A stretch of 51,804 bases of DNA from Verrucomicrobia bacterium ADurb.Bin122 (GCA_002070825.1 MWDT01000001.1:1-51804), one strand, 5' to 3'. Shown: positions 32,467 through 51,804, counted from the first letter of the stretch. The notes: a model not told the origin generated them from the letters alone. Translations and numbers: made by a program.

Positions 32467-32554
<88 letters not shown>

Positions 32555-34418: not shown

Positions 34419-34495
<77 letters not shown>

Positions 34496-34510
34496 ATTTA
34501 AAACACTCTA

Positions 34511-34555
34511 AGGCCCGCACAGAACGAAAGTTCCGAGCGGGCCTTTCTGTTTTCC
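34511..34555 (+). terminator. Terminator-like hairpin after tRNA-Met
   Basis: AGGCCCGC...GAAC-gaaa-GTTC...GCGGGCCT followed by TTCTGTTTT. Confidence 0.55.
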
Positions 34556-34646
34556 GAATTTCCATGGCACCACATGGAATTGCACGGCACGGGCAAAAAT
34601 TGGACACTTTTTGGACACCTAGCGCTCCACCGCCCCAACCCGCCCC

Positions 34647-34725
34647 AAAAAGGTTCATCGAAAAGATTCTTTGAAAAGATTCATCAGAAAGAACCAAAAA
34701 AAGGTTCATCAGAAAGAATCTTTTT
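34647..34725 (+). repeat. Three approx 24-26-bp direct repeats (core GGTTCATCRRAAAGAWYC) upstream of the first island ORF
   Basis: Cores are GGTTCATCGAAAAGATTC (34652), GATTCATCAGAAAGAACC (34678) and GGTTCATCAGAAAGAATC (34702). A TTGACA follows at 34728. Confidence 0.7.
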
Positions 34726-34793
34726 AGTTGACAATCAATCTGTTGCGATTTTTTAGTCTTGTAAAACCTAGGACGGCCAGCCGGACTGCGCTC

Positions 34794-35099
34794 ATGAGCT
34801 TGCATGTCCCATCCGCGGCTACCTCGCCCATCGCCCCTCTCCTTCTCAGTCGGCGGGAGGTGGTTGCCCGACTTCGCTCACCCAAGCTCGTCCAGCGCAT
34901 GCTATTTGCATCCGCCCACGGAGCATCAACTGGCGATGCCTGGCTCGAGGAAATCCGCGCCGATGGCCGCACCCGCCACAGACTTTATACAAACGAAAGT
35001 GTGGAGCGCGCATATGAGCGGCTAGTCGCTGGTGAATGCCCTCCACTACTCCCTAGCGAGCGCCGCGCGGCGAATCGGCAGCACTCCCGCAATGCATGA
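34794..35099 (+). CDS. Hypothetical small protein, possibly DNA-binding
   Basis: ATG 34794 within ORF 34728..35099. First ORF after the repeat array. No motif that I can name with certainty. Confidence 0.35.
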   Translation: MSLHVPSAATSPIAPLLLSRREVVARLRSPKLVQRMLFASAHGASTGDAWLEEIRADGRTRHRLYTNESVERAYERLVAGECPPLLPSERRAANRQHSRNA

Positions 35100-35111
35100 T
35101 GTCCAGCGCCG

Positions 35112-36068
35112 ATGGATCTAGCCTCCACCAGTCCACAGCCTGCCGCCACGCCTCAAACGCCGAGGACGGCATCTAAGCACTGGGATCGCCGGTGCAGGAT
35201 CGCAATTGATGTCTTTGACCGCAGCTGCCTTGAGCGGAATGATCTGGGCTACTACTCGTCAGTATTCGCAATAACAAACCTACCGCATCGCGATCTTGGA
35301 CCGAAGGGAACGTGCTGGACTCGGAGAAATGGTCACGCGTCCCTCGTGGTGCGCCCAGGACTGATCCCGGGGCCAGACGGCTCACTCATCTCAGCCGGAA
35401 TCCCGTACGGGATGTGGCCACGACTGCTCGTCCTATATCTTGCCACCGAAGCCGTTCGCACCCGATCGCCTCAAATCGAACTGGGCCGCTCACTCGCCGA
35501 TTTTTTTCGTCGGTTAAAACTCATTCCAGATACACGACGTGTCCAAATGCTCCGCCGGCAGGCATTGCGGCTTTTCTCGGCGAGTATCCAGTTTACTTTT
35601 TCAGATTCGGAGATCTTAGGCGGGAGCTCCGCTCAATTGGCCGAGCAATACCTGCTTTGGCGGAGCGAAAACGATATCGGGGATTCGAGGCCACGTAACG
35701 CCAGCCATGTTACCCTCACTACGCACTTTTTCCGGGGGCTATTGGCGCACCCATACCCCGTCGACATTGGCGCCATACATGGGCTACGCCAGTCACCACT
35801 AGCGCTCGACTTATTCCTCTGGCTCCCACTCCGCCTACGGGCACTCAGGCATCCGCTGAATTTAAGGTACGACACATTAGCCGAGCAAATGGGATCGAAT
35901 TACGCGCGGAAAGCTGAGTTCGCGAGGCACTGCCTCCGTGCACTGCAAAAGATCCAGCAGTTTTGGTTTGGGCTTCGGTATCGGAGGATCCACGACGGCA
36001 TTCAATTTTTGCCATGTGAACTTCCGGTTCCGATCAGGACAAACCCAACAAAACAAAAAATCCAATGA
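35112..36068 (+). CDS. Plasmid RepA-like replication initiator
   Basis: 318 aa. The pattern ...GIPYGMWPRLLVLYLATEAVRTRSPQIELGRSLADFFRRL...LRRQALRLFSASIQF... resembles the 'plasmid-encoded RepA' family (G.PYG..PRL.L.YL.TEAVRT.S..I.LG.S). An iteron cluster lies 2.5 kb downstream. Confidence 0.55.
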   Translation: MDLASTSPQPAATPQTPRTASKHWDRRCRIAIDVFDRSCLERNDLGYYSSVFAITNLPHRDLGPKGTCWTRRNGHASLVVRPGLIPGPDGSLISAGIPYGMWPRLLVLYLATEAVRTRSPQIELGRSLADFFRRLKLIPDTRRVQMLRRQALRLFSASIQFTFSDSEILGGSSAQLAEQYLLWRSENDIGDSRPRNASHVTLTTHFFRGLLAHPYPVDIGAIHGLRQSPLALDLFLWLPLRLRALRHPLNLRYDTLAEQMGSNYARKAEFARHCLRALQKIQQFWFGLRYRRIHDGIQFLPCELPVPIRTNPTKQKIQ

Positions 36069-36325
36069 AAACACTGACCAACATGATCGACGAAGTTGCA
36101 CTCGAATCCTTCCCTGGAAGCACGTTCTCGCCAGCGATCAAAACGAACGCTGTCGGCCTGCTCGAAGAGATGTGCCGCAAGACCGCAGTGAAGGCCCTGC
36201 GCAAAGCAATTCTGGGAGGTCGCCCCAAGACTCCCCTCGTCGCAACGGAAGCGCGTCCGAAGGATGCTCCATGCACGACGCCAGACACCGCGCGCATCCC
36301 CGCCGCCAGCAACTCGAAATCATGA
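36065..36325 (+). CDS. Hypothetical small protein
   Basis: 86-aa ORF whose ATG overlaps the RepA-like stop as ATGA. No recognisable motif. Confidence 0.35.
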   Translation: MKTLTNMIDEVALESFPGSTFSPAIKTNAVGLLEEMCRKTAVKALRKAILGGRPKTPLVATEARPKDAPCTTPDTARIPAASNSKS

Positions 36326-36334
36326 GTTCTTTTT

Positions 36335-36515
36335 CCCGGTAGCTCCTTTCCGGGTGGTATACTCACTATACCACCCTTCGCTCCGCGCGAGGGTGGTAAC
36401 GCTCGCGCCGCGAGCTTAGTTCGGCAGGGCAACCCTGCACCCGTTTCGTATCGGCTCCCGATACGACCAAGGGCCTCGAAACGGCCCTTGGAACCCCGCC
36501 CGCTCAAGCGGGCAT
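36335..36515 (+). promoter_or_regulatory. Hairpin-rich region upstream of the relaxase gene; candidate oriT / single-strand origin
   Basis: Consecutive inverted repeats: GGGTGGTATA-ctcac-TATACCACCC (36352-36376), GCGCGAG...CTCGCGC, GCAGGG-caa-CCCTGC, TCGTATCGG-ctc-CCGATACGA, and CCAAGGGCC-tcgaaac-GGCCCTTGG. Confidence 0.5.
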
Positions 36516-36559
36516 TATGCGAGCACAGCTCGCGCTCTCCTCCTGGAGGGAATACACCC

Positions 36560-38440
36560 ATGCCTTTCGCGCTCTATCGCGTCGCCAAACTCAAATCCCA
36601 TGGAGCCATGCGAGGCTCTGTGAGTCACACAGCACGCCATCGTGACACCCCCAACGCAGATCCCTCGAGAGCTGCCCAAAACGAACAGCTCATCGGCTTC
36701 GACCTGCGCATCCCCACCCCGGATGCGTTCATCGCCGAATGGGAAAAGCGAACTCACGGTGTCCAGCGAAAGCCCGACGCAGTTCTTTGCCAGGAACTGT
36801 TCCTCGGAGTTTCTCCTGCGTTTTTCACCGATTGCTCGATTCCCGCTGAACGCGTGCACCGTCTGACAGAGTGGAAATCGCGCACGGTTTCATGGCTGCG
36901 TGACGAATTCGGAGATCGCGTGTTTGCAGCCACGCTTCACGCCGACGAGACGACCCCGCACATCTGCGCTTACGTGATACCGATTCGCGTCGCGAAAGAT
37001 GGCACGCAGTGGCTATCCGCCAAGCATCTGTTTAATCGAATCACACTGCGAAAACAGCAGGACTCTTATGCGGCGGTGCTGTCCGACCTCGGCATCGAGC
37101 GCGGGCTTCGCGGCAGCAAAGCGAAACACCAGTCCGTGCGGCAATTTTATGCCCTAATGGAGGCCCCGAAAAAGCCGCTGCCCTCCCCCTTAAAAATCGC
37201 CGATGCGGTCCAGAATTCTGTACCGGAAAAGGGACTCTTCGAGCGGCACGAAGCATATCGTCAGCGAGTAGCAGAAGCAGTCGGCCGCGAGACTCAGCGA
37301 CTAGTCAAGGTGGCAGAGCGGGCCGAGGTCATCGCAGAGAAAGCCGCACTAGAAAAATCAGCCCGTATCGGCACCGAGGCCACGAATCGCTCGCTGAGCC
37401 TTAAGCTCTCGGAATCGCAGATCCGGGTGAAGGAGCTGACCAATCAAGTACGGGATATCCCCCTTGAAGAGGTAATGCAGCGCTTAGGCTTCGGCGAACC
37501 CAGCGCCGAAGGGACAGAACGCGTCTGGCGCACAGGGGAACACGCCCTGTCGATAAACGGAGCGAAATGGTACGATCACAAAGCCGGCAAAGGCGGAGGC
37601 AAAGCCATCGATCTGGTGATGCATGTCATGGCGTGCGATTTCCGCGACGCAGTCGGTTGGCTGGCCGGCCAGTGGTCTGAATCCGAGGCCGCCGCAGCGG
37701 TCCGCTGCGCTGCAATTGAACAGGTCAGAGCCACGCCCAAGAAAGACTTCCGCGAACTCTGGCGCTATTACGCGCAACCCGATGCCGCCGCGACTCAGAT
37801 CGCGCAGGATTACCTCATCCAGGAGCGCATGATTCCCGCACAGGTGGTCGAGCATGCCATCGCATGCGGAATCATCCACGGGAGCTTCGAACACCGGCGA
37901 AGTGGAGGCCGCCGCACCTGGTGCGTCTTTCCGCACATTTCCGCGAGCGCACAAATTGTCGGCGCAAGTCTGCGGGCCACGGATTCGTTCGAGGGGCCGA
38001 AGCGGGCCATTGGCAGCAAGATCGATGGATTCTTCGCCATTGGGCCCACCGCAATCCTCGCGAATGAGATCGCCCTCGTGGAATCGCCTATCGACGCATT
38101 GAGCTACGCCGCCTTGAACCCCAAAGCCCACGTGGTGAGCATCGCCGGTGCCTCAGTGCCAGAGGCGATTTTACCGCTATTCCAGCGAACCACACAGCCG
38201 ATAACCTTGGCGCTCGATGCCGACCAAGCGGGGAATCAAGGCTGGCTCCGATTTCTTGAACGGATCCGGTCGCTTGGGAGTAGCCTTCTTCAGCGCCTGA
38301 GACGGCTCGTTCCAGAGTATCCAGGATGGCCCTGCAAGGACTGGAATGACGTCATGAAGGCCAAGACACTCACCCCCACGCCAGCGATCAGCCCGACACC
38401 CAACGTCGCAGAGCCGCCTCAGCGAGGGATTCGGCGCTAG
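36560..38440 (+). CDS. MobV-family (Mob_Pre) relaxase fused to a DUF3991-like/Toprim domain
   Basis: ATG 36560 with GGAGGG upstream. The N-terminus MPFALYRVAKLKSHGAMRGSVSHTARHR carries the HxxR motif. LHADETTPHI matches the H.DE..PH motif. The middle is coiled-coil. The C-terminus has WYDHKAGKGGGKAIDLV and a Toprim domain (VESPIDALS, LALDADQAG). Confidence 0.75.
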   Translation: MPFALYRVAKLKSHGAMRGSVSHTARHRDTPNADPSRAAQNEQLIGFDLRIPTPDAFIAEWEKRTHGVQRKPDAVLCQELFLGVSPAFFTDCSIPAERVHRLTEWKSRTVSWLRDEFGDRVFAATLHADETTPHICAYVIPIRVAKDGTQWLSAKHLFNRITLRKQQDSYAAVLSDLGIERGLRGSKAKHQSVRQFYALMEAPKKPLPSPLKIADAVQNSVPEKGLFERHEAYRQRVAEAVGRETQRLVKVAERAEVIAEKAALEKSARIGTEATNRSLSLKLSESQIRVKELTNQVRDIPLEEVMQRLGFGEPSAEGTERVWRTGEHALSINGAKWYDHKAGKGGGKAIDLVMHVMACDFRDAVGWLAGQWSESEAAAAVRCAAIEQVRATPKKDFRELWRYYAQPDAAATQIAQDYLIQERMIPAQVVEHAIACGIIHGSFEHRRSGGRRTWCVFPHISASAQIVGASLRATDSFEGPKRAIGSKIDGFFAIGPTAILANEIALVESPIDALSYAALNPKAHVVSIAGASVPEAILPLFQRTTQPITLALDADQAGNQGWLRFLERIRSLGSSLLQRLRRLVPEYPGWPCKDWNDVMKAKTLTPTPAISPTPNVAEPPQRGIRR

Positions 38441-39319: not shown

Positions 39320-39533
39320 CTTACAATAGAGACTAAGCTGCTATTAACGCGGACTTAGTTAATGAATATTGTTTTAGAACGGACAAACAAGAGCAGGGTG
39401 GTTGGCATACGATGTGGGGGCACGGGGCTACGCGGGTATTTTCCACTCTACTCACTGATCAATAGCGCTCCGGGCGGCGCGGTGGGCGCTCCCCTTGCCG
39501 ATGGGGAGCGATCTGCCAACATTGACCACTACG

Positions 39534-39956
39534 ATGCAGGTCACCGCCATCCACCCGATCAAATCCGGCGCGCCGCTTTCCCGGCCCCTCATGTTCTCCC
39601 CCGCTGCCGCAGGCTTCCCAAGCCCCGCCGAGGATTATTTGGATCGCGAACTCGACCTTACCGCCCACCTCATCCGCCACCCCGCAGCCACGTTCTTTGT
39701 CCGCGCCTCCGGCCATTCCATGACCGGCGCCGGCATCAACGATGGCGCACTCCTCGTCGTGGACCGCGCCGAAGAGGCCCGCGACGGACGCGTGGTCGTC
39801 GCCGTGGTCGGTGGAGCCCACACAGTCAAACGCTTCCGCCGTGCCGGTGAGCGGTACTGGCTAGAGGCCGCCAATCCGGATTATCCCGACATCCACGACT
39901 TGGACGACGAATCCCGCGTCTGGGGCGTGGTCACGTTTGCCATCAATCCACTCTGA
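39534..39956 (+). CDS. umuD: UmuD-like S24 peptidase (translesion polymerase V accessory subunit)
   Basis: AAGFPSPAEDYLDRELDLTAHLIRHPAATFFVRASGHSMTGAGINDGALLVVD...TVKRF aligns with E. coli UmuD (CGFPSPAADY...ASGDSM...TVKK). It has an Ala-Gly cleavage site and the Ser/Lys dyad. Confidence 0.85.
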   Translation: MQVTAIHPIKSGAPLSRPLMFSPAAAGFPSPAEDYLDRELDLTAHLIRHPAATFFVRASGHSMTGAGINDGALLVVDRAEEARDGRVVVAVVGGAHTVKRFRRAGERYWLEAANPDYPDIHDLDDESRVWGVVTFAINPL

Positions 39957-39971
39957 TCTCCGCAGCGTGCC

Positions 39972-41234
39972 GTGTTCGCCCTCGTCGATTGCAATTCATT
40001 CTACTGCTCCTGCGAGCGGGTCTTTCAGCCGAGGCTGGAGGGCCAGCCCGTCGTCGTCCTTTCTAACAACGACGGCTGTGTCGTTTCGCGCACGATAGAA
40101 GCCAAGGCGCGTGGCATCGCCATGGGGGAGGTCTGGCACCTGGCACGCCCCGAACTTAAGGCGGGGGTCCACGCCTTTAGCTCCAACTACACCCTCTACG
40201 GCGACCTGAGCCGGCGCGTCATGGCCACCCTGCGCGGGTTCGCGCACCACATCGAAGTCTACTCCATCGACGAAGCATTTCTCCGCTACGACATCGCGGC
40301 CGACTGGACCACGCTCGGCCGGGAAATCCGCGCCACCGTGCAGCGGCACACCGGCATTCCCGTGAGCGTCGGCTTCGGCCCCACCAAAGTGCTCGCAAAG
40401 CTCGCCAACCGGCTCGCCAAACAACGCGAAGCCCATGCCGGCGTGTTTCTCTGGCCCACCGATCCAGCCGCCGCCACCGCACTCCTCGAAACGGTGCCCG
40501 TCGGCGAAGTCTGGGGCATCGGCCGGCGCCTCTCCGAGCGCCTCGCGCCCCTAGGCATCACCACGGCCCGCGCACTGCGCGATCTTGACGACGCGACTGC
40601 GCGACGTCGGCTCACCGTCACCGGCCACCGGCTCGTACTTGAGCTACGCGGCCAGTCCTGCCTCGCATTGGAAGAGCTTGCCCCGCCCAAGCAGGCCCTC
40701 TGCTGCGCTCGGGGATTCGGCACTCCCCTATCCACCCTGGACGCCTTGGGCGAACCGCTGGCAACCTACGTCAGCAGACTCGCCGAGAAATTGCGCGCTC
40801 AGCGGCAGGTCGCCGGCTATCTCCAAGTCTTTCTTGAAACGAATCCACACGCGGGCGTCCCACAGTATTGCCCGAGTACCGGAAGCACGCTGCCGCTGCC
40901 GAGCAACGACAGCAGCCGACTCGCCGCCGTCGCAGCCGGTCTGCTCCGCCGGATATTCCGGCCAGGGTTTTCGTTTCGCAAAGTCGGCGTACTTGTCTCG
41001 GACCTCAGTCCCGAATCCTCCATGCAACTCGCCTTCGAAGCCCCGCCTGCGGAGGTTCTGGCGCGCCGCCACACGCTCATGGCAACAATGGACCGCCTCA
41101 ACCGCGACTACGGCCGCGGCACCGTCCGTCTGGCCTCCGCCGGCAACACTGCCCCCGTCTGGAAGCTCCGCCAGGCCCGCCTCAGCCCCTGCTACACCAC
41201 CAGCTGGGAATCCCTGCTCACCGTTTCCGCGTAA
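39972..41234 (+). CDS. umuC: UmuC-like Y-family DNA polymerase
   Basis: GTG start. MFALVDCNSFYCSCERVFQPRLEGQPVVVLSNNDGCVVSR is the typical UmuC N-terminus. Lies 16 nt after umuD. Confidence 0.9.
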   Translation: MFALVDCNSFYCSCERVFQPRLEGQPVVVLSNNDGCVVSRTIEAKARGIAMGEVWHLARPELKAGVHAFSSNYTLYGDLSRRVMATLRGFAHHIEVYSIDEAFLRYDIAADWTTLGREIRATVQRHTGIPVSVGFGPTKVLAKLANRLAKQREAHAGVFLWPTDPAAATALLETVPVGEVWGIGRRLSERLAPLGITTARALRDLDDATARRRLTVTGHRLVLELRGQSCLALEELAPPKQALCCARGFGTPLSTLDALGEPLATYVSRLAEKLRAQRQVAGYLQVFLETNPHAGVPQYCPSTGSTLPLPSNDSSRLAAVAAGLLRRIFRPGFSFRKVGVLVSDLSPESSMQLAFEAPPAEVLARRHTLMATMDRLNRDYGRGTVRLASAGNTAPVWKLRQARLSPCYTTSWESLLTVSA

Positions 41235-41361
41235 GCCCCTGCCCCGACTTCCCCCACCTGACGTTGGATTTTCGACGTACATTTTGTCTCCGTCCTCCGC
41301 CTCCACATCCACGCGCATCCCAAGATTGACGATCGTACGTCACACCCCTTTGGGGCAGCCG

Positions 41362-42117
41362 CTACATCCACTCGCACCGCAGCCGGTGCCAGGCGAGAAA
41401 TTCAAGGTGTTCGGGGGCGAGCCAACGGAGCTTCACTTCCCCTGTTAAGCCAAGGCAGCCGCGCAGGTCGGCATTGATCGCAGGGGCGAAAATGCCAGTA
41501 CCGTCATCAGTGAAGGTCATCAGGTGGCGGTCGAAGAGCGCGTCGATATGGGCGCAGAGCAGGAAGCCGTTGTAGACGTTCAGGCGCTCGGCATCGGTGG
41601 CGCACTCCGCCCAAGCCTTCGCATGACTGGCCCGCAGCAACTCCGGCACGGCGATGCCCGTCACCGAACAGCCGCCGCCCCAGTAGTCCATGAGCGACTC
41701 GCGGAAGATGTCTTGCCCGACCCTCTGTTTGACGAGCCGCTCGACCTCGGTGGAGGTCGGTTTCCGCTCCGTCAATTCGAGCGCCACAGCGCGGGCGAAC
41801 CGCGCCTCAGGTGCATCCGGCAGCGCCCTGGCGAGACGCGCCGCCTCATGCAGCAGCAGCGCGAGTTCGCGCTCCGTGGATACGCTCTGCGCCTCACCGG
41901 CCGCGCGCCCGAGCGAGCGCCGCAGTTCACGATCCAGGGCCGCGTTGGCGACTCGCACCTGCCAGCGCGCACCGTCGCCCTGTCCCTTCGCGATCTCGAC
42001 CTGTGCCCGATGCAGCGCCGAGGCCAGCCGCACCCGCTGGGCCGTGGCCTCAACGACCACCTCCCAGCCGTGGTCGTAACCGGATTTCGTGACAAGGGTG
42101 CGTTCGAGGGAGTTCAT
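41362..42117 (-). CDS. HNH_2-type endonuclease
   Basis: RVGQDIFRESLMDYWGGGCSVTGIAVPELLRASHAKAWAEC...ERLNVYNGFLLCAHIDALFDRHLMTF is the HNH_2 signature. Starts 25 nt after the upstream ATPase stop. Confidence 0.8.
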   Translation of the reverse strand: MNSLERTLVTKSGYDHGWEVVVEATAQRVRLASALHRAQVEIAKGQGDGARWQVRVANAALDRELRRSLGRAAGEAQSVSTERELALLLHEAARLARALPDAPEARFARAVALELTERKPTSTEVERLVKQRVGQDIFRESLMDYWGGGCSVTGIAVPELLRASHAKAWAECATDAERLNVYNGFLLCAHIDALFDRHLMTFTDDGTGIFAPAINADLRGCLGLTGEVKLRWLAPEHLEFLAWHRLRCEWM

Positions 42118-42142
42118 GGGGGAGCGATATCAGCGAACCACG

Positions 42143-45100
42143 TCAACCGTTTGAAGCTCCAGCGCTCGTCCCAAGCCGGTGCAGGTGAAACCCGCCCTCG
42201 CCGAAGGCCTTCTGGCAAAGGTCGACGAGATGTTCATGGTGGGTGAAGAGCAGGATCTGCGTCCGCTTCCCCAATTCGCCAAGTTGAGGCAGAATCGCCT
42301 TCGCGCGGTCGTTGTCGAAGGTGATCAGGAGGTCGTCGAGGATCAGCGGCATCGGTTCGTGCTCCTCCAGAAAGCGCTCCAGCGCGGCAAGTCGCAACGC
42401 GAGGTAGAGCTGGTCGCGCGAGCCGTCGCTCAGGCCTCCGACGGTCACGGTAGTCTGGTCAGGTCGGCGCCCCACCAGCACGGGCGTGTCGTTGGCTCCG
42501 AACTCCGGCGCCAGGCCGGCGAAGGCGCCACCAGTGATCGCGCTGAAAATAGCACCGGCCCGTGAGAGCAGCGGCCCCTGATTTTCCTCCCGAAACCGCT
42601 CGATCTGCTGCTCGACCAACTGGGTGGCCAGCCGCAGTCGCAGGAAACGGGAGGCATCCTTGGCCAGCGCCGCCGCCTGCAGCTCCGCCTGCTGCCGCAG
42701 ATCGGCTGCCTGATCGCCGGCCTTCTCGAGTTCACGCTTTGCCGCGCCAAGCTGAAAAACCGTCTGCCGAACGGTCTCCAGTGCGTCGCCAAGCTCCTGT
42801 TTCTTTCGCGCCGCTTGCGCCTTCCGCTCGTGGAACGTGGCCGGATCCTCGGCACGCACTTTCGCGACAAAGTCGTCCACGCCCTGGCCGCGCACGTGGC
42901 TGCCCAGCGTCCTTCGGAGTTGATCGATCTCGGTCCGGATCACAGCACGTCGCTCCAGCTGGACCAGCAGCGGGTCGAGCGCGTCGGCGGTCTCCACCGC
43001 AGCCACACGTACCAGCTCAGCCTGCGCCTGCTCGGCAGCGCCCAAGCGCGCCTGCGCCTCGGCCAACTCCGTGTCCAGTTGCTCGCCCTGCTCGGCCAGC
43101 GCCCGGTGGCGGCGCTCAGCGTCGCGAGCCTCCTCAAGCCGCTTCCAGAGCGTGGCTTCCTGTAGTTCCGTCGACGCTTCGCCGACGCCGAGAAGTTCAG
43201 CCATGTCGGCGACTTGGCGTTCGTACTGTTCGCTGTCGCGAGCGAGCGTCCCGACCTTCGCGGAAGCGGCTTTCCACTCGTCGTAGTCGCGGAGCAGTTC
43301 GCAGCGTTTCGCGATCAGGGTCAGACCGGCCTTCGGGGAGGTGCCTTCCGGCAACCCGACCGCCTTGCATCGGGTTTTCCAGTGTTCCGCCGCTTGGGCG
43401 GCGGCCTGGCGGCATCGTTCACGCGAAGCCGCCTCCTTCGAGGACTCCGCCCTGAGCTCGGCAAGCTGTTTCGCGAGCGCCTTCCGCTCCCCCGCCGCCT
43501 GCTCGCCTTCCTGCACAAATTTTCGCCCCGCAGCGAAGAGCACCGCAAACTCCTTCTGGGCGGAATCGCCGAGCGCTTCGGCCAGCCGCCGCCGTGCCGC
43601 TTGGATCTGCGCCGACTTCCGGGCGACGTCGCCCTGGACCTCGGCCAGCTTGGCGTGGCTGTCGCAGAACGCGCACCACTGAGCACGCCATTCTTCCATT
43701 TCCGCAGGCGAGCGTGGAAGCAGAGCGCAAGGCGCCCACACTGCGGTCCACTCCTCCTCCCACTTGGCCATGGCCTCCCGATGAGTGGCGAGTCGCCGGC
43801 CAGCCTCGTCGGCCTGCTCTTGGGCCACACGGATCTGCAGCCGCTTCTCATCCGCCTGCGCCACCGCCTCCGCATTCTTCCACAAACCGTCGGCGATGGC
43901 GTCGGCCTTGGCGATCGTACGCGGGAACGCCTCCTCCAGCGGCGTGCCGGGTACCAGCTCCTCCGCCGCACCGTCGCCCTTCCACTCGGCCAGCACCAGT
44001 TCCCAGCCGCGATCCCGTTGTTTCCGGGCATCGAGCAATGCGGACTCCGTGGGCAACTCTCCCCTACGCTGGAGCCGGGCCAGTTCCGTTTCCAAATTCT
44101 CGCGCTGGCGCAGGGCCTCTCGTTGGGCCTTCTCTTCAGCCACGATCTCACGCTCGATGCGGGCCCTCTCTTCGCCATGGCGACGAATCGTGGCCGAACC
44201 GGGCACGGGCAAACGTACCGTGGCCTCGAAGTCGGCCGGGGCTCCCACCAAGGCACGATGGAGCGTTGTCGTGTTTTTCTGCTGCCGGCGCAACTCGGCC
44301 TCGCTGGCGACGATCGTCTTGTCCGCATCCGTCGCCTCGGCAGCCACCGCCAAGGCCTCGCGGATGGCGTCCAAACTGGTCTCCGCCAAGGCGGCAAGCT
44401 CACGCTCCCGGTCGGCACTCTCTCGTGCGCGGGCCTCTGCCTTCTCGCCGACGGCTGATTCCTGACGTGCGGCCTCCTGCAGTGCTTCAGCCGCCTCCTC
44501 GCAAGCCAAGCGCATCGCCGCACTCACCCGACGCTCCTCCAGAACCGCGAACGTGCCCGCCAAGCCGAGATCGCGCATGCCCGCCGCCAGGGAGGACTCG
44601 CAAGCGGCGATCTGTTCCCGCAGGCTCGCCACAGTCTTCTTGCGGTCGCGATAGATGGACAGCGACTGATGCAGCAGATCCAGCGCTTGCCCCTGCGCCA
44701 GCAGAGTGCTCGCCACCGGGCACGATTCCAACTGGGTGCGAATGCGGTTCGCCTGTTCCGTCAGGCGCCGCACTTCAGCCTGCGTCTGGGCAAGAGTCTT
44801 CCGGGCATCGCGCACGCGGTCGATGAAGTCGCTGGCCACTTCCGGCAATGCCGGCAGCGCGGCCAATTTTTCCAGCCCCTCGTCGAGGGCGACCACACTG
44901 GGCAACGCCGCCTCGCAGCGTTCCACCCACGAGAGCTCCCGTTCGAGGTTGGCCAGCTCGCCCTCGAGCCGCTGCTTCTCCCCATCCGCCTTCGCCAGAG
45001 CCTCCTCGTTTTCCTTCCACGTATCCGGATCGACCACGGCTTCGCGGCTTTGCTTCAGCAGTTCCTTGTAGCGGTTCGCCGCCGGGCGCAGCGAGACGTT

Positions 45101-45637
45101 CGCCGTCGCCCGCCCTTTGAAGATCCGGTCGGCCTCCGCTTGCAGCGTTTCCAGCACCTTCTGCACCGGTGTGCCGCCCATACTGGCCGAGAAGAGCGCC
45201 TCGCCCATCGCGCCCTCGCCCCGCAGGAGTTGCTGGGCTCCCTCGCTGAGTTCCCGTGCGCCGAGACCGAACATCGTCGAGAAATAGGCTTGGTCGACAC
45301 CGCCGAGAAACGGCGCCAAGGCATCCTCCGGCAGCACGGCACCGGCGGCGTCGAGCAACGTGTTCTTGTTTCCCTTTCGGCGCTGGAAGCTCAGCTCCAC
45401 GCCCGCCCGATTCCGGAGCCGGCCCTTCAGGCGGAGCTCCTTGTAGTCGTGCAGGAAGTTGTCGCTGGATTGTCCGTGGATGCCGAAGAGCAGATCCCGA
45501 ATCGCCCGCAGCAACGAACTCTTGCCCGCCTCGTTCGCGCCGTAGATCACGTGCAAGTCGCCGGGGGCATCGGGAAAGGCCAGCTCCAGATTGGTGAACG
45601 GACCAAACGCCGGGATCTCGATCTGTTTGAACCTCAT
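42143..45637 (-). CDS. Rad50/SbcC-like ABC ATPase with long coiled coil (YhaN/SbcE-like), 1164 aa
   Basis: The start MRFKQIEIPAFGPF... is ATG 45635-45637, overlapping the upstream TGA. Walker A GANEAGKS. About 900 aa are Ala/Glu/Arg-rich coiled coil. Signature LSDGSRDQLYLALRLA and Walker B PLILDDLL. Confidence 0.85.
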   Translation of the reverse strand: MRFKQIEIPAFGPFTNLELAFPDAPGDLHVIYGANEAGKSSLLRAIRDLLFGIHGQSSDNFLHDYKELRLKGRLRNRAGVELSFQRRKGNKNTLLDAAGAVLPEDALAPFLGGVDQAYFSTMFGLGARELSEGAQQLLRGEGAMGEALFSASMGGTPVQKVLETLQAEADRIFKGRATANVSLRPAANRYKELLKQSREAVVDPDTWKENEEALAKADGEKQRLEGELANLERELSWVERCEAALPSVVALDEGLEKLAALPALPEVASDFIDRVRDARKTLAQTQAEVRRLTEQANRIRTQLESCPVASTLLAQGQALDLLHQSLSIYRDRKKTVASLREQIAACESSLAAGMRDLGLAGTFAVLEERRVSAAMRLACEEAAEALQEAARQESAVGEKAEARARESADRERELAALAETSLDAIREALAVAAEATDADKTIVASEAELRRQQKNTTTLHRALVGAPADFEATVRLPVPGSATIRRHGEERARIEREIVAEEKAQREALRQRENLETELARLQRRGELPTESALLDARKQRDRGWELVLAEWKGDGAAEELVPGTPLEEAFPRTIAKADAIADGLWKNAEAVAQADEKRLQIRVAQEQADEAGRRLATHREAMAKWEEEWTAVWAPCALLPRSPAEMEEWRAQWCAFCDSHAKLAEVQGDVARKSAQIQAARRRLAEALGDSAQKEFAVLFAAGRKFVQEGEQAAGERKALAKQLAELRAESSKEAASRERCRQAAAQAAEHWKTRCKAVGLPEGTSPKAGLTLIAKRCELLRDYDEWKAASAKVGTLARDSEQYERQVADMAELLGVGEASTELQEATLWKRLEEARDAERRHRALAEQGEQLDTELAEAQARLGAAEQAQAELVRVAAVETADALDPLLVQLERRAVIRTEIDQLRRTLGSHVRGQGVDDFVAKVRAEDPATFHERKAQAARKKQELGDALETVRQTVFQLGAAKRELEKAGDQAADLRQQAELQAAALAKDASRFLRLRLATQLVEQQIERFREENQGPLLSRAGAIFSAITGGAFAGLAPEFGANDTPVLVGRRPDQTTVTVGGLSDGSRDQLYLALRLAALERFLEEHEPMPLILDDLLITFDNDRAKAILPQLGELGKRTQILLFTHHEHLVDLCQKAFGEGGFHLHRLGTSAGASNG

Positions 45638-46890
45638 GACTCGCTCCCTCCTCGCGTCGCCAGCGCGTCGATGATGATCGCCCGCACATCGTCCAGGACC
45701 GCCTGCCGGCCCGGCCCCGACCATTCGGCCTCGAACTCCCGGCGGACCTCCGGCGGCAGCACCTCGGCCATCTCCCGGATGTCGGCCGGCAACTCCGCCA
45801 CGGCTGCGCTCGCGCCGGCCAGGCTCTCGACGACCGTCTTCGTCAACGGATCGCGCTCGGCCAGCTGGGCAACGTCGTAAACCGGAGTCGTGACCACCTT
45901 GAGACGCTCGATCCAGAGCATGTCCGCGCCCTGGTCCTGCGCGCGGGCGAGGAGCTCCGAATGCCAACGTTCCCGGTCGCGATGAAGCCCCCCGTGCAGA
46001 GTCGTCGCACCGGAGAAGATCACGCGCGCGGCGACCGGTCGTCCCTCGGCCTGTGCCACGGCGTACTCCATCGCGGTCTGCACCCGCCCGAAGGCCTCGG
46101 CCTCCTCGATGCAACCACCGAGGTCGACCGCGATCTGGGCCCAGCGCACGACATCCACCGGGCGCCACTCGGCTTCCACGACCCGCAACGAATCGTCCAC
46201 CGTCACCAAGCGGCACCCACGCGGGCCCGCCTCCTTCACGTGCCGGCCCTGGCAGTTGCCGGAGAACACGATCCACGGGTCCTCGCACACCACCGCCGGT
46301 TGGTGGATATGGCCGAGAGCCCAATAGCCGTAGCCTTTCGTTTGGAGGTCGGCGACCGAACACGGGGCGTAGGTGTCGTGGTCGGCCGAGCCGGCCAAAC
46401 TGGTGTGCAGCAGCCCGAGGTTGAACTTACCCGCAACCGCAGCCGGGTACTCTTGGGCGAAGTTCTCCGGCACGGCCCGGTGCGGAAATCCCCGCCCATG
46501 GATCACCACCGGCAGCCCCGGCACCTCCATGGATTCCGACGTGCGAGTCGAGAAGACATGGACGTTGTCTGGCAGGCTCAACTTCTTCGAAATCACCGAC
46601 GCCGCGTCATGGTTGCCAGCGATCAAGTAGACGGGGATGCCCCGCTCGCCGAGCCGCACCATCTGCCCGCGGAAAAACAGGCCGGAGCTGTAGTCCTTCC
46701 AGTCGCCGTCGTAGATGTCGCCCGCGATCACCACGAAGTCCACCGCCTCATCGAGCGCGAGTTGGACCACGTTCTCGAAGGCGCGACGCGTGGCCCCGCG
46801 CAGGAGCGCGACCGGCGCCCCCTCGTGATACTCCAAGCCTTGGAGCGGGCTGTCCAAATGCAGGTCGGCGGTATGGATGAAGCGGAACAT
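45634..46890 (-). CDS. Mre11/SbcD-like calcineurin-type phosphoesterase (YhaO/SbcF-like)
   Basis: IHTADLHLD, IAGDIYDG, IAGNHD and GHIH are the nuclease motifs I-IV of the SbcD/Mre11 family. Confidence 0.85.
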   Translation of the reverse strand: MFRFIHTADLHLDSPLQGLEYHEGAPVALLRGATRRAFENVVQLALDEAVDFVVIAGDIYDGDWKDYSSGLFFRGQMVRLGERGIPVYLIAGNHDAASVISKKLSLPDNVHVFSTRTSESMEVPGLPVVIHGRGFPHRAVPENFAQEYPAAVAGKFNLGLLHTSLAGSADHDTYAPCSVADLQTKGYGYWALGHIHQPAVVCEDPWIVFSGNCQGRHVKEAGPRGCRLVTVDDSLRVVEAEWRPVDVVRWAQIAVDLGGCIEEAEAFGRVQTAMEYAVAQAEGRPVAARVIFSGATTLHGGLHRDRERWHSELLARAQDQGADMLWIERLKVVTTPVYDVAQLAERDPLTKTVVESLAGASAAVAELPADIREMAEVLPPEVRREFEAEWSGPGRQAVLDDVRAIIIDALATRGGSES

Positions 46891-46920
46891 GGGGGATTGG
46901 AGAGTTATGGTGTCAGGTCA

Positions 46921-49659
46921 TCACGGCTCGATGTGCGCAGCGAACAGCGGCCAAACCGCGTAGCGGACGCGGTCTTGCAGCTCCTGCTGACTCGGTCTGG
47001 CAAGCTGTTCGGCCAGCTGCCGTTCGAGCGTCAGCCATCGATCAGCGACCGTCGTCAGGCTCGGTTTCGCCCGTGCCGAGAAGCTTTGGAGCCCCCGGAC
47101 CAGGGACGCCTTTTCCTCTTCCGAGAGCTCACGTGAGGAATCCAGCTCCTGACTCGCCACGAAGAAACGGAGTTCGAGAGCAACCTCCTTCGCTCCACCG
47201 ACCGAATCGAGCTGCAGCTTCTGGCGCAGATAGCCGTAAACGACCGCATTGCGGCCGAGCGACTCCCGCAGCGTCCCGGACGTTTCGCCCCACCGGAGCA
47301 GTGCAGCGCCCACCGGATCAGTCGTCACCGCGTGTTCGCGGAGGACATCGAGCACCGGCGTCACATTCGACCCCAGGGGCCTGACCTGCCCTGCCGTTTC
47401 ACCACTGACCGGGTTGCCTTCGTAGTCGCCGATCAGGCCGAGTAGGCCGCTCTTCATTCGAATCACTCGCGCCGCCTCGTCCAATGCGACGACCGCATCG
47501 CCCTGGAAACGGAAACGGGTGACGTTCACGCCCTCCGCGGCTTGGGCTCCGCCGTAGCGAACGAGAAAAGACTCCAGATCCTCCCACCGCGCCAGGCCGG
47601 CGGGCATCTTGCGGATCGTCCGCTGGTTCGCCGCAAAGCGGTCATGGAAGCCCTGCCAGTTGCGGAACCCGCTCTCCACCAGATCGGACAAGCGGCCTTC
47701 TTCCTGCGGCCCGATCTCCGGTGCCGTGCTCGCCAGCATGATCTCCTGCAGACTCTCCGGCGCCACCAAGCACATCACCCGGGAGAAAAGCGCCTCGAAA
47801 CGCTCCGGGGCCACCATTGCCCGTGAGACCATTAGCAGGCGTTCACGCGCGACCGACCACATGCGCTCCTCGCGACTGTCCTTCAGCACGAGCGTGTCGA
47901 CGACGATTGTCTTGCGAGAACCGAAGCGGTGGACCCGGCCGACTCGTTGCTCCATGTCCATGGGATTCCATGGGACATCGAGGTGAACCAGGCGATGGGC
48001 GAACTGGAGATTGATGCCCTCGCCACCCGCTCGCGACGAGATCAGGAACTGCGGACCATCCGCGCTTCGGAACTGCGCCACTTCTCTGTCGCGCTCCGCG
48101 TCGCTCTGCCCGCCGATGATGATCGCAGGCATCTTGCCGGTCTTGCGCTGCAACCAACCCGCCAAGCCAAGCACGGTCTCGATCGGTTGTGCGAACAGTA
48201 CGATCTTGTCAGTGCCGGCCGGCCCAATCACCTGCTCCCAGAGCGCCTCCCATTTCGGTTGCAGCGGCGACAGCACCAGATTGATGCCCGTCGCGAGCAA
48301 CGAGCGCAGAATCTCGCGTTCGTACGCGCTGAAGCCCGTCGCTTCTTCGTCCTCGATATCCTCGAGGTCGCCCACGTCGGTCTGCCGCTGCACCTCCTTG
48401 CACATCCGTGCGAAGAGATCGGTCACCGGCTCGTCCGGCCGACCTCGGCGGTACGGCCGCATCGCGGCGAGCGCTTCGCGAAAACCCGGAGTCTCCAGCG
48501 TCCAGCCATCGCGGATGCCTTGGCGGACCAGATAGCCCAAGCCGGCGTGCGGGCTCGACGCCGCCCATTGCAGCGCCTGCGCACACCGCCAGCCCACAGC
48601 CCGTCGCCGAATCTCGCTCATTTCGTCCGGCGGAGGACTGAAGAAGTGTTGGATCCGCTTCAGCCAATCGCGATGCTCTTCACTCACGTCGCACACGACC
48701 GGCGGGTTCACTTGCCGCCGGGGAAACAGCGGCTGCTCGTCCCAGTCCCGCACATCCTCTTTCGTGCGGAAGATCACGCGCCCGGCCACGCTTGAATCCG
48801 GTTCCTGCGGAGTGTGCAGCAATCCCAGCAGATTCTCGAACCGCGCCTGATTGGCCTGATGCGGCGTGCCGGAGAGGAGAAACAGGTACCCGTCCGCCGG
48901 CTGTCGGGCCAGAATATCCCGGGCGAGCCGGAACTTCTGAACCGGATCGCCGCCGCCCGGTGCCCAGTCGCTGAGGTGATGGCACTCGTCCACCACGATC
49001 ACGTCCCACGGCCGACCAGTCTTGAACTTCTCGACATGAGCCGGATGCACGGCCCGATGGATGCTGGCGATGATGCGGTCGTCGGTCGCCAGATTCGCAT
49101 CGGAGTCCAGCGCCTTCCACTCGCGAAACGGCAGCCCCATGCGGCGAAACTCCCGGCCCACGTTCGAGACGAGGCGGGCTGGCGCGAGATACAGGACACG
49201 CAGGCCGGCATTCGCTGCCAGCAGTTCCTTGATGATCAGGGCGACCTCAACCGTCTTGCCCAAGCCGACTTCGTCCGCGATCAGCACACGCCGCAGCTTG
49301 GCATTATCGAGGATGTGCCGCACCAAGCTCACCTGATGGGCCAACGTCACCACCTCGCGCACCTCGAGGCGACGCTGAGGGTCCTCCGCCAGCAACGCCA
49401 AGGCCTCGAGCCGCGCCAGACTCCGCCGACTCATGTTCTGCCAGTTGGCTCCAGCCGGGAGTTCCACCATCAACTCCGCCGGTGTCTTAAGCGGGGTCGT
49501 CTGGTAGGGATCGACCTCCGTACGGAGCGCGCTCGCGACCGTGGCTTGATCGGCCCAGAGCCTTCGCGGCAGCGGCGCCAAGTCGTAGACTTTTACGCCC
49601 CAGTCTTCCCGTTCGCGCAGAATCACATGCGGAGCCCCATCGTGGGTTACGAGTTTCAT
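46921..49659 (-). CDS. SNF2-family DExH helicase with an uncharacterised approx 300-aa C-terminal region
   Basis: ADEVGLGKT (motif I), VVDECHH (II), LLSGTPHQAN (III), and SSRAGGEGINLQ...DVPWNPMDMEQRVGRVHRFGS (V-VI). Confidence 0.85.
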   Translation of the reverse strand: MKLVTHDGAPHVILREREDWGVKVYDLAPLPRRLWADQATVASALRTEVDPYQTTPLKTPAELMVELPAGANWQNMSRRSLARLEALALLAEDPQRRLEVREVVTLAHQVSLVRHILDNAKLRRVLIADEVGLGKTVEVALIIKELLAANAGLRVLYLAPARLVSNVGREFRRMGLPFREWKALDSDANLATDDRIIASIHRAVHPAHVEKFKTGRPWDVIVVDECHHLSDWAPGGGDPVQKFRLARDILARQPADGYLFLLSGTPHQANQARFENLLGLLHTPQEPDSSVAGRVIFRTKEDVRDWDEQPLFPRRQVNPPVVCDVSEEHRDWLKRIQHFFSPPPDEMSEIRRRAVGWRCAQALQWAASSPHAGLGYLVRQGIRDGWTLETPGFREALAAMRPYRRGRPDEPVTDLFARMCKEVQRQTDVGDLEDIEDEEATGFSAYEREILRSLLATGINLVLSPLQPKWEALWEQVIGPAGTDKIVLFAQPIETVLGLAGWLQRKTGKMPAIIIGGQSDAERDREVAQFRSADGPQFLISSRAGGEGINLQFAHRLVHLDVPWNPMDMEQRVGRVHRFGSRKTIVVDTLVLKDSREERMWSVARERLLMVSRAMVAPERFEALFSRVMCLVAPESLQEIMLASTAPEIGPQEEGRLSDLVESGFRNWQGFHDRFAANQRTIRKMPAGLARWEDLESFLVRYGGAQAAEGVNVTRFRFQGDAVVALDEAARVIRMKSGLLGLIGDYEGNPVSGETAGQVRPLGSNVTPVLDVLREHAVTTDPVGAALLRWGETSGTLRESLGRNAVVYGYLRQKLQLDSVGGAKEVALELRFFVASQELDSSRELSEEEKASLVRGLQSFSARAKPSLTTVADRWLTLERQLAEQLARPSQQELQDRVRYAVWPLFAAHIEP

Positions 49660-51804
49660 GCGGCCTCCACCTCCTTCTGCTCAACGGGGGCAAGCTCGGC
49701 TGGGATCGCCTCGAGCGCTGCAGTGATCACCGGCAGCGCCGCCGTATCGTGAGCGTTCTGCCGGGCCAACTGCCGATCATAGCGCTGCAGGAGTGCATCC
49801 GCGGCCTCATCCAAGGGGTTCGAGTGTTCCTTGAAGGCGGTCACGATCTCGCGCTCCACCTCCTTGAACCGCTCCGTCAACAGCGTCACAGCGGGCGCGG
49901 TCGCGGATTGGACCACCTCCAAGGCAAGCTCGGAGAACATCTCGAGAATCCGGTTCTTCACTCCGGCTCCGATGTCTTTGCCTTCCTCAACGAACCGCTC
50001 ACAACGCCGCCGGATCGGCCCTTCGATCTTCCGCACCAACTCGGCACGCACCTTGTTCCGCAACTCCTCGACGGCTTCCTTGCCGACGCTGTTGAGGCGC
50101 TGCCGTTGTTGCCGAACCTCCTCCACCAATGCTTCGAGGAGCTTGGTCGTGACCTTGATCCCGCTCGTTTTCGCCCAGGCGAGCACCTCCTTCAGCACTT
50201 CTTCCTGGTACGCGGAGTAATTCGCCGTCTCCTTCCGGATCCCCTGCAGAATCGCACTGCTCCAAACCTGAGCAACCGGAGCCTCGAAACACAGGGAGAA
50301 ATCGTGCGGCAGCTGGATATGCCGAGCCCCGATGAACGTTCCGCTCCGCCGCACCGCGGCGCGCAGCGTGCCCCAATGGGCGTCGCGCAGCTTTCGGAGA
50401 TACGCATTGATCTCTCCTTGGGCCACCGTTGCCGCCCCGTTCACCTTGGCCTCGATCAACTCAGGCACCGTCTTGCGCAGGTAACCGCGAAACTCGCCGC
50501 GCCGGGTATCGAACTCGCGCTGCCGCGGCCCGAGGTACGTCGAAAGCTGTTGCTCCATCTCCTCGCGTTCGTGCTGCGCCCGCGATTCCTCCGAGAGCTG
50601 CGCGCTAAGCAGAGTCAGTCTCGCGCGCAGTTGGCCGAAAAAACCGTCGGCCGCTGCCGCCAGTCGCGCCTCCTTCTCACGCCGATAGTCCTGCGAGACG
50701 CCCACCAGCGCCGCACTCAGGGCCGGAACCTGCGTCTCCTCCACGGTTGTGAGGAAAGACGGCTTCTTTGGGTCGCTCCTGAGGATCTTCCGATACTCCG
50801 GAGCCGACACCGGGAAGACGCGCAGGCCTTCCAACAGCCGCTGGATGATCGTCTGCTTCTCCTCCCTCAGCTTCTCATCCTGGCTCGCCCAAACCTCCGG
50901 CAGGAACTGCTCCAGCTGTTGCTTCACGCTATTCCGGCACGAGGCGACAACCTGCGCGAAGTACTCGGCTTCCGTGTGCGGAGCCTCTCCGTATATCGCC
51001 TCCGCATTCTCATGGTTTGCGACCGCGACATCGTCGATCTTCACCACCGCCACGATAAGCGACACTGGATCGGCACTGGGATCGCCGCTCGCGTGAAGCA
51101 GCCGATTCAGGAATCCCGAAGCTTGCAGCAATTCGGCATCGTCTCGCCGCAGTCCGCCGGAATCGGTCACCAGCATCAGCGCTTTCGCATGATTCCGGAG
51201 AAAGTCCGCGGTGACCGACTCGTAGAGGTCGTTATGCACGCCAATCCCGGGCAAATCGACAATCTCCATGCCCGCCTTCAACATCTCGGACGGCCATTCG
51301 ATCTGCATGTCGGCGATCAGCGGCGCGAGATACTCGCACGCGTGCAGACGAAGTTGTTTCGGGAAGTCCGGGTTGTCTGTGCTCGTGAACACCCGCGTTT
51401 CCTTGGCGCTGCCAAAACGCGTCGCCTCACGTACAGCATCGAGACGCTCCAGATCCTCGCCGATGATGATTGCTCCGTACTTCGGCTTCAGCCCCTGAAC
51501 CCACAACAAAGCGTCGATCAGGTACTCCAGCGAGCGCTCCGCTGTCTGCGAACCCGAGACGAGTAGCCGCGCCCGCCGCTCCGCCTCCACCGTCGCCTTC
51601 TTCTTGTCGGTCTCGGTGCCTTGCTCGAACGACTCGGCCACCTCCACGAGATCCGATTCTCCGCCCGACAAGGTCGACGCGCTTGCGACCGCGGCCGCAG
51701 CGTTCACTTGCGCGGCTTCACGCCGAAGCTTCGCTTCCAAGACAAATCGGGTCTGATTGACCACCTGCTTGCCGTGGTAGCGCACCGTGAATCGTTTCTC
51801 CGCG
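49656..51804 (-). CDS. Dynamin-fold GTPase-like protein (5' end possibly outside the window)
   Basis: The frame stays open to the window edge, and the GTG at 51785 is only a possible start. IVDLPGIG is G3-like and VKID is G4-like, with dynamin-like spacing. The G1 position reads GSQTAERS instead of GxxxxGKS. A long helical C-terminal part follows. ATGA overlap with the SNF2 gene. Confidence 0.6.
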   Translation of the reverse strand, partial: AEKRFTVRYHGKQVVNQTRFVLEAKLRREAAQVNAAAAVASASTLSGGESDLVEVAESFEQGTETDKKKATVEAERRARLLVSGSQTAERSLEYLIDALLWVQGLKPKYGAIIIGEDLERLDAVREATRFGSAKETRVFTSTDNPDFPKQLRLHACEYLAPLIADMQIEWPSEMLKAGMEIVDLPGIGVHNDLYESVTADFLRNHAKALMLVTDSGGLRRDDAELLQASGFLNRLLHASGDPSADPVSLIVAVVKIDDVAVANHENAEAIYGEAPHTEAEYFAQVVASCRNSVKQQLEQFLPEVWASQDEKLREEKQTIIQRLLEGLRVFPVSAPEYRKILRSDPKKPSFLTTVEETQVPALSAALVGVSQDYRREKEARLAAAADGFFGQLRARLTLLSAQLSEESRAQHEREEMEQQLSTYLGPRQREFDTRRGEFRGYLRKTVPELIEAKVNGAATVAQGEINAYLRKLRDAHWGTLRAAVRRSGTFIGARHIQLPHDFSLCFEAPVAQVWSSAILQGIRKETANYSAYQEEVLKEVLAWAKTSGIKVTTKLLEALVEEVRQQRQRLNSVGKEAVEELRNKVRAELVRKIEGPIRRRCERFVEEGKDIGAGVKNRILEMFSELALEVVQSATAPAVTLLTERFKEVEREIVTAFKEHSNPLDEAADALLQRYDRQLARQNAHDTAALPVITAALEAIPAELAPVEQKEVEAA

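Follow-up and report, generated by a model that had tools for sequence, protein, structure and literature searches.

Does the tightly packed block of five genes at one end of a verrucomicrobial contig form a single defence system, or does it join parts that belong to different units? The block occupies positions 41362-51804 of the window, i.e. the whole analysed stretch of 51,804 nt from Verrucomicrobia bacterium ADurb.Bin122 (GCA_002070825.1 MWDT01000001.1:1-51804). It encodes a putative dynamin-like GTPase, an SNF2-family ATPase, a YhaO-type metallophosphoesterase, a YhaN-type ATPase and an HNH_2 nuclease, and an earlier note on this DNA had taken the five genes for one undescribed system. 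Our comparison with relatives points to another answer. The region is probably the distal part of a long co-directional operon in Opitutaceae (Verrucomicrobiota), related to ARMADA type I and DISARM, in which two two-gene cassettes are nested. What was observed directly in the compared sequences is which genes the region holds, how they group into modules, how well each module is conserved, and the defence setting.

Organization of the five-gene block

As the earlier note had stated, five open reading frames (ORFs) run in the same direction on the minus strand. The features of the block are as follows, the sister contigs being described below.

49656-51804, minus strand: bacterial dynamin-like GTPase, 3' part of the gene (715 codons), cut by the contig end
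46921-49659, minus strand: RapA-like SNF2-family ATPase, 912 aa (Pfam Helicase_C, ResIII and SNF2-rel_dom)
45634-46890, minus strand: YhaO/SbcF-type Mre11/SbcD-like metallophosphoesterase, 418 aa (Metallophos, 52.5 bits)
42143-45637, minus strand: YhaN/SbcE-type SMC/Rad50-like ABC ATPase, 1164 aa from the ATG at 45637 (AAA_27, 234.9 bits over the whole profile)
41362-42117, minus strand: HNH_2 gene, 251 aa (Pfam HNH_2, 38.2 bits)
41333-41361, minus strand: 29-nt 3' tail of the operon and predicted locus boundary, at which homology with the sister contigs stops (41333)

The junctions also agreed with the previous description. The dynamin and SNF2 genes (49656-49659) and yhaO and yhaN (45634-45637) are joined by ATGA overlaps of 4 nt; SNF2 and yhaO lie 30 nt apart, yhaN and the HNH gene 25 nt. 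The ORF listing gives a GTG at 46363 as an alternative start of the YhaN ORF. Neither a σ70-like promoter site nor a minus-strand terminator-like site was detected inside the five-gene block, and this, together with the junctions, supports one tightly packed co-directional unit. All motifs that had been read from the translations were found (DLPG, VKID, GLGKT, DECH, QRVGRVHR, DLH, GDIYD, GNHD, GHIH, GANEAGKS with K39, LSDG and LILDD), and Pfam backs the domains assigned to them (Dynamin_N, Helicase_C/ResIII/SNF2-rel_dom, Metallophos, AAA_27 and HNH_2). The catalytic motifs of all five proteins are intact when the window proteins are taken together with the full-length dynamin from the sister contigs.

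An exact-sequence look-up of the window SNF2 protein returned 19 metagenome contigs, and those fetched were 99.97-100% identical to the window in DNA. L006 is 100% identical, and the sister contigs L001-L005 are 99.97% identical from 51804 down to 41333 and unrelated beyond that point (blastn against the window). No in-frame stop occurs upstream of 51785, the dynamin gene running off the end of the contig. Its complete product has 812 aa in L001-L003; in the window copy about 97 residues are missing from the N-terminus, and with them the P-loop, whose G1 motif (GQARVGKS, residues 57-64) lies outside the window. Upstream of the dynamin gene, a gene that encodes at least 998 aa of a methyltransferase is present in the sister contigs, and its stop overlaps the dynamin start by ATGA. 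The presence of this gene in 99.97%-identical contigs confirms that the 5' end of the operon lies beyond the window. A CCCC(C) run, not a Shine-Dalgarno-like sequence, precedes the dynamin, yhaO and HNH starts (42118-42122 and 46891-46895 in the window; L001:2990-2994; L105:14222-14226, in a relative described below).

This packing is what would be seen if the five genes, or six with the methyltransferase, formed one integrated undescribed DNA-targeting system and all acted together. The ATGA overlaps, the gaps of 25-30 nt, the shared direction and the lack of an internal promoter- or terminator-like site would all fit such a system, as would the 99.97% identity of the block in at least six metagenome contigs and the fact that dynamin-SNF2 pairs adjoin YhaO/YhaN-like pairs in several unrelated lineages. 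However, the full set was not seen again outside contigs that share 99.97% identity with the window. Across genomes the homologues are largely non-syntenic, with only dynamin plus SNF2, YhaO plus YhaN and a lone HNH_2 conserved.

A conserved frame with two exchangeable slots

Three relatives, defined by the identity of their methyltransferase, were compared: L107 (91.5%), L105 (82%) and L106 (69%; Opitutaceae bacterium TAV1, JH660698.1). All three have the frame order YprA helicase, 934-aa SNF2, slot 1, methyltransferase, slot 2, HNH_2. The frame helicase is a protein of 1760-1765 aa with DEAD, Helicase_C and MZB (DUF1998) domains, of which the L107 contig shows the last 199 aa only. Its best PADLOC match is DruE (1e-94), and its PDB matches are large helicases and YprA (6znp). 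The best NCBIfam match of the frame SNF2 is DISARM_DrmD, over nearly the full length, at 316.2 bits against a cut-off of 610. The frame methyltransferase is a PglX/DrmMI-like adenine methyltransferase of 1400-1600 aa. The window SNF2 is a paralogue distinct from the frame SNF2, about 27% identical and only in the core (columns 127-592 align). By extension from these relatives, a YprA helicase and a frame SNF2 would also be expected upstream in the window genome.

L107 and L105 are 82-98% identical in DNA over the helicase end and SNF2, the methyltransferase and the HNH gene, and unrelated in exactly two slots. The slots contain the following.

Slot 1, L105:8162-9835: SLFN_AlbA_2/HATPase_c_4
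Slot 1, L106:8474-9970: 498-aa protein, weakly similar to Argonaute-associated proteins
Slot 1, L107:3406-6946: DUF1016/YhcG, 23S_rRNA_IVP and DUF4062/HATPase_c_4/HTH genes
Slot 2, L105: YhaO-YhaN, no dynamin-SNF2
Slot 2, L106: 676-aa LmuB-like SMC ATPase
Slot 2, L107: AAA_15 fragment, PDDEXK_3 gene and small ORFs; neither cassette
Slot 2, window lineage: dynamin-SNF2, then YhaO-YhaN

From these alignments, what lies between the methyltransferase gene and HNH appears to be an exchangeable slot. HNH_2 orthologues (58-77% identical) terminate L105, L106 and L107 irrespective of slot content, and because they persist at the 3' end of the locus with or without the cassettes, we count HNH_2 as a predicted frame gene that belongs to neither cassette. 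The protein matches PADLOC HNH profiles at 4e-18 and 1e-15. The remaining four genes of the block appear to be two inserted pairs, each translationally coupled. The distant locus L033 has a YprA fragment, an SNF2 gene, a methyltransferase (37% identical) and two small genes, followed by dynamin-SNF2. In TAV1, the LmuB-like ATPase gene stands directly before HNH_2 (L106:14818-17754), an arrangement that resembles a two-gene Lamassu-like unit inside an ARMADA-like locus.

These comparisons bear directly on the idea of one integrated system. L105 is without dynamin-SNF2, L107 is without both pairs and L106 has another ATPase, yet none of the three has lost the methyltransferase or HNH. Most dynamin-SNF2 loci, moreover, lack YhaO/YhaN, HNH or this methyltransferase, and YhaO-YhaN is widespread without the other genes of the block. 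We therefore consider it improbable that all of the genes act together as one system, and prefer a frame into which two cassettes have been nested.

Relation of the frame to ARMADA and DISARM

ARMADA, short for disARM-related Antiviral Defense Array, was described by Bell et al. (bioRxiv 10.1101/2025.09.15.676423). In type I, a YprA homologue, closest to that of Druantia, is followed by a BrxHII/RapA-like helicase and a PglX-like methyltransferase, and the supplement includes type I helicases from Opitutaceae metagenome-assembled genomes; the main text names no dynamin, HNH, Rad50, SbcC or Mre11 partner (10.1101/2025.09.15.676423). ARMADA has been reported to act directly, without abortive infection, and ARMADA II has been validated in enterohaemorrhagic Escherichia coli (PMC13463889). 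L105, L106 and L107 share the published gene order, with a helicase closest to DruE, and a PglX-like methyltransferase continues upstream of the window operon in the 99.97%-identical contigs. The Opitutaceae loci differ in that they add a terminal HNH_2 and two exchangeable slots. The earlier idea of an undescribed combined architecture thus stands in part: the set is unnamed as such and is defence-related, but it appears to be the tail of a published class, the ARMADA type I frame.

Class 1 DISARM is similar in other respects. The methyltransferase matches DrmMI best, the frame SNF2 matches DrmD over nearly its full length, and self-marking by methylation would be common to both. In contrast to the split DrmA/DrmB, the relatives fuse helicase and DUF1998 in a 1760-aa protein; they are without the phospholipase D (PLD)-type DrmC, have HNH_2 in its place, and differ in gene order. 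Strict class 1 DISARM was ruled out by the fused helicase-DUF1998, the absence of a PLD gene and the missed DrmD cut-off.

The upstream methyltransferase has Eco57I, MmeI_Mtase and N6_Mtase domains (Pfam). Its top PADLOC match is DrmMI (1.4e-52), PglX being weaker, and the nearest full-length methyltransferases are from Opitutaceae, which places the organism in this family. The gene varies (92% aa identity) among strains with identical downstream genes (L001:1-3000, L002:1-2970, L107:7140-11417), and within it a hypervariable segment of about 170 nt is 40-63% identical at the nt level. The 90% cluster to which it belongs has 11 members, nine of them truncated by a contig end. Published work describes programmed inversions for DrmMI-like genes in loci of this kind (PMC9881135). 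Because of the hypervariable segment, the strain differences and the published DrmMI-like inversions (PMC9881135), specificity switching of the methyltransferase is plausible.

The dynamin-SNF2 pair

Dynamin-like proteins can act in phage defence, as in Eleos. We fetched 90 dynamin loci from genome contigs and metagenomes (the latter with a trimmed alignment), and these gave 68 non-redundant lineages with enough downstream DNA. In 67 of them, the gene that follows dynamin encodes an SNF2 orthologue with 42-64% full-length identity, and the inferred gap has a median of about 11 nt. The identities of the two proteins co-vary (r = 0.90, 50 pairs). The dynamin family consists of proteins of about 800 aa in 405 clusters at 50% identity (E <= 1e-30) and was found in at least seven phyla, its hosts belonging to Verrucomicrobiota, Gammaproteobacteria, Betaproteobacteria, Nitrospirales, Planctomycetes, Acidobacteriota, Myxococcota and Bacteroidota. 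One member is from a cultured strain, Polyangium fumosum DSM 14668 (Myxococcota). Neighbours of the pair include type I restriction-modification genes in about 10 lineages, PDC-S68 helicases in seven and type III-like methyltransferases in five, and further GmrSD, Hhe/PDC-S37, BrxC, DruE and Wadjet JetA. PADLOC and Pfam scans in which 116 neighbour ORFs were pooled gave counts of families, not the share of neighbours with a defence match. The pair has no entry in PADLOC v2, and no report of a dynamin-SNF2 defence pair was found in the searchable literature. Dynamin-SNF2 appears, from this distribution, to be a tightly conserved, co-evolving and apparently unnamed pair in defence islands of many phyla.

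The full-length dynamin protein scored 46 bits with Dynamin_N (cut-off 27), and the cut protein of the window 23.8 bits. The G, K, S and T of the P-loop, DLPG and the aspartate of KID are invariant columns in an alignment of 30 sequences. An AlphaFold2 (AF2) model of a 64%-identical orthologue had a predicted local distance difference test (pLDDT) score of 78.9. Foldseek with this model matched SynDLP, BDLP and IniA at E values of 4e-14 to 1e-10, and gave a probability of 1.0 to SynDLP, BDLP, IniA and Cj-DLP, the Campylobacter dynamin-like protein (DLP) pair; the PDB entries matched were 7zw6, 2j69, 5oxf and 6j72. By modelled fold class, the protein is a predicted bacterial dynamin-like GTPase. 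Neither a transmembrane segment nor a hydrophobic paddle was found from the hydrophobicity of its sequence. Searches of PLSDB plasmids, INPHARED phages and IMG/VR with the dynamin protein gave no match.

The fold class and the intact GTPase motifs are shared with Eleos (LeoA/LeoBC), BDLP, SynDLP, IniA and DynA. The likeness to Eleos goes little further: the LeoBC profile matches about 40 residues round the P-loop only (E 2e-7), and neither a LeoA match nor a further dynamin gene is present. The partner of the window dynamin is instead an SNF2 ATPase, and fusions in the family are to NERD, FHA and kinase domains. The fusion proteins observed (P0417, P0430, P0445, P0466) carry two FHA domains with an extra GTPase, a Ser/Thr kinase, NERD, or a second dynamin unit.

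The nearest PDB relative of the window SNF2 is RapA (2e-40, profile search). PADLOC matches were BrxHI (1e-48), HmaA (2e-39) and DrmD (1e-36), and the NCBIfam DrmD model gave 150.8 bits against its cut-off of 610; other curated cut-offs were also missed widely. Its ATPase core is homologous to those of RapA, BrxHI/HII, DrmD and DpdE of Dpd. The differences are the pairing with a dynamin and two family-specific regions, of about 115 aa at the N-terminus and about 310 aa at the C-terminus, which align with neither the frame SNF2 nor PDB chains. A profile search of PDB sequences with the C-terminal 310 aa gave chance helical matches only, and the single-sequence AF2 model of the protein (pLDDT 38.5) was too low to use. 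Plasmids had only core matches, about 30% identical.

We tentatively suggest, as a possibility with the odds somewhat against it, that dynamin and its obligate RapA-like SNF2 could be an autonomous, undescribed two-gene system against phages or plasmids. The GTPase would then be the first of the dynamin family to act on DNA or a DNA-bound motor and not on membranes, and the pair would be plugged into an ARMADA-type accessory slot beside a defence-adapted SbcEF nuclease.

Additional genes accompany the pair in some lineages. A 263-aa gene without a Pfam match lies between dynamin and SNF2 in two of them (L011:12384-13175, L012; L063:12167-12970). Directly upstream of dynamin, a protein of about 300 aa without a family match is encoded in a sub-clade of 10 lineages (L009:7172-9977, L032:3252-6003, L075:7227-9751 and others), and its gene often follows one for an AAA_15/21 ATPase (PADLOC HEC-03B, PDC-M55A, NsnB) as well as hsdR-hsdM-hsdS. 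This sub-clade may represent a larger variant of the dynamin-SNF2 module.

The YhaO-YhaN pair and its relation to dynamin-SNF2

The window YhaO is 82% identical to that of L105, 73% to that of L101 and 68% to that of L102. It scored 55.9 bits with the SbcD model TIGR00619, below the cut-off of 77.65. YhaN has at least 1550 homologues, many of which share 51-66% full-length identity with it and bear the name YhaN in JGI and NCBI records. It matches the Rad50 model with an E value of 0.0017. No PDB relative was found for it by sequence, and plasmids gave no match. In an alignment of 121 sequences, made up of the window protein and 120 homologues, the CxxC at residue 655 shows no conservation, so a zinc hook of the Rad50 type appears to be absent from YhaN. 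Mre11-Rad50/SbcCD proper was rejected on the missing conservation of CxxC and the missed SbcD TIGR00619 cut-off.

Close relatives of the pair lie immediately ahead of the BREX genes pglZ-brxL (L101), in a conjugative element beside a WYL/SNF2/DUF4391/methyltransferase cluster (L102), and together with HNH and AbiE genes in L103-L105. YhaO-YhaN thus appears from its contexts to be an independent cassette with its own large family.

SbcE (YhaN) of Bacillus subtilis is described with a distinct central domain and with a role in double-strand-break repair and competence (PMC2811018). The absence of a predicted zinc hook in the window protein fits this central domain (PMC2811018). A Metallophos gene followed by an AAA_27 ATPase gene is the order in SbcE/SbcF (YhaN/YhaO) as well, and the window YhaN has a conserved central region in place of the zinc hook. 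The difference lies in the setting, the window pair being nested in a defence operon and variable among close relatives, while the Bacillus pair has been described as repair.

The Bacillus precedent raises the alternative of a housekeeping DNA-repair operon, in which double-strand-break repair of the SbcEF type is combined with a helicase and there is no defence role. Besides the repair and competence functions of the B. subtilis protein (PMC2811018), umuDC adjoins the block. It lies, however, beyond the 41333 breakpoint in a non-homologous segment. The genes of the block follow a methyltransferase of restriction type, their presence varies between close relatives, AbiE toxin-antitoxin pairs flank the block in the sister contigs, and homologues occur beside BREX and in mobile elements. 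Dynamin-SNF2, too, is patchy over phyla and occurs in varied defence contexts. A pure repair function is very improbable on this evidence.

It was also considered that, in some lineages, dynamin-SNF2 senses or remodels DNA and a YhaO/YhaN-type pair acts as effector, the two making up a four-gene module hosted by the frame. The pairs are adjacent in the window lineage and in L011/L012 (divergent, 275 nt apart); in L014 the YhaO/YhaN-like genes are on the opposite strand, in L021 a YhaN-like gene is directly upstream on the same strand, and in L032 a YhaO-like gene is directly downstream. Most dynamin-SNF2 pairs, however, have no such neighbour. The L014 and L032 genes are 25-38% identical to those of the window over parts only, which indicates different SbcCD-like families, and co-residence in defence islands could yield the same adjacency in such raw counts. 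We regard a four-gene module as unlikely, and retain two separate cassettes nested in one frame.

Several points nevertheless weigh against this preferred interpretation. The relatives are assigned to ARMADA type I by domain content, gene order and best-match profiles. All three defining ARMADA genes lie outside the window, and the YprA helicase and the frame SNF2 are known from relatives only. The tight packing, including the 4-nt overlap of methyltransferase and dynamin, fits functional integration and nesting equally. Of about 35 lineages in which 3 kb or more of flank is visible, five have dynamin-SNF2 beside YhaO/YhaN-like (SbcCD-like) pairs, in four arrangements, and this adjacency hints that the two cassettes may cooperate and not be fully independent. 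Finally, the neighbour genes were crude longest-ORF calls.

Other named systems

The search with PADLOC and family profiles proposed in the earlier note assigned the five-gene set to none of the named systems in PADLOC v2 or NCBIfam. The likeness to Septu, Lamassu, Zorya and Eleos drawn there was reduced, in the PADLOC comparison, to generic P-loop or helicase-core matches. Lamassu was rejected, with YhaN matching LmuB (3.6e-14) in two stretches only and with no LmuA- or LmuC-like gene. As for Septu, PtuA profiles match only residues 1-50 to 1-70, the Walker A region (E about 1e-5), and the HNH protein matches the PADLOC profile 'HNH' and type II restriction endonuclease profiles, not PtuB. 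MADS is a different operon of eight genes, of which only weak mad2, mad3 and mad8 profile matches were seen. The gene set also differs from that of MANTIS/Gao_RL.

Proposed mechanism and implications

A mechanism may be outlined for the complete locus. The methyltransferase would mark host DNA, and the YprA helicase-nuclease and the frame SNF2 would attack unmarked invader DNA, with HNH possibly contributing cleavage activity. YhaO-YhaN may bind and resect the resulting DNA ends, or the ends of linear phage DNA. Dynamin-SNF2 would be a separate layer. Its motor, SNF2, probably contacts DNA or a complex bound to DNA, on which a nucleotide-driven oligomer of the GTPase, a protein without a membrane segment, probably forms.

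If confirmed, the functional unit would be smaller than the operon, and the apparent five-gene system would be a known frame with swappable cassettes, a caution for the discovery of defence systems from operon structure. Opitutaceae loci of ARMADA type would then offer defined slots that can be mined for new defence genes, like hotspots of phage satellites and defence islands. The dynamin-SNF2 pair is the main lead and is directly testable through the cultured Polyangium fumosum DSM 14668. A DNA-linked immune role of a dynamin-family GTPase would, if true, be new biology.

Flanking regions and remainder of the contig

Past the HNH gene, the sister contigs carry AbiEii/AbiEi pairs and the window carries umuDC. 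Because identity stops at 41333 and AbiE replaces umuDC there, the 3' flank of the operon appears to be a recombination or insertion boundary. The nearest features of the window on this side are the following.

39972-41234: umuC, converging on the operon
39495-39956: umuD, converging on the operon
34419-34495: tRNA-Met, complete gene
32467-32554: tRNA-Ser, complete gene

The accessory, defence-type setting proposed in the earlier note is supported, although one of its details requires revision. The presumed border at a tRNA fragment was not borne out, the neighbouring tRNA-Met and tRNA-Ser being whole genes. umuDC is present next door (39495-41234), on the far side of the 41333 breakpoint where homology is lost. 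Near 41333, a search for an att-type repeat of the end of tRNA-Met found none.

An integrated remnant of a mobilisable plasmid lies directly after tRNA-Met (window 34419-38440) and has a low G+C content (0.56-0.59). It contains four iteron-like repeats with a spacing of 13 nt (34647-34723), a RepA_C gene (35112-36068) and a Mob_Pre plus Toprim gene (36488-38440). The tsf and rpsB genes are at 32702-34204, and positions 1-32400 of the window hold mainly long minus-strand genes with a G+C content of 0.60-0.67.

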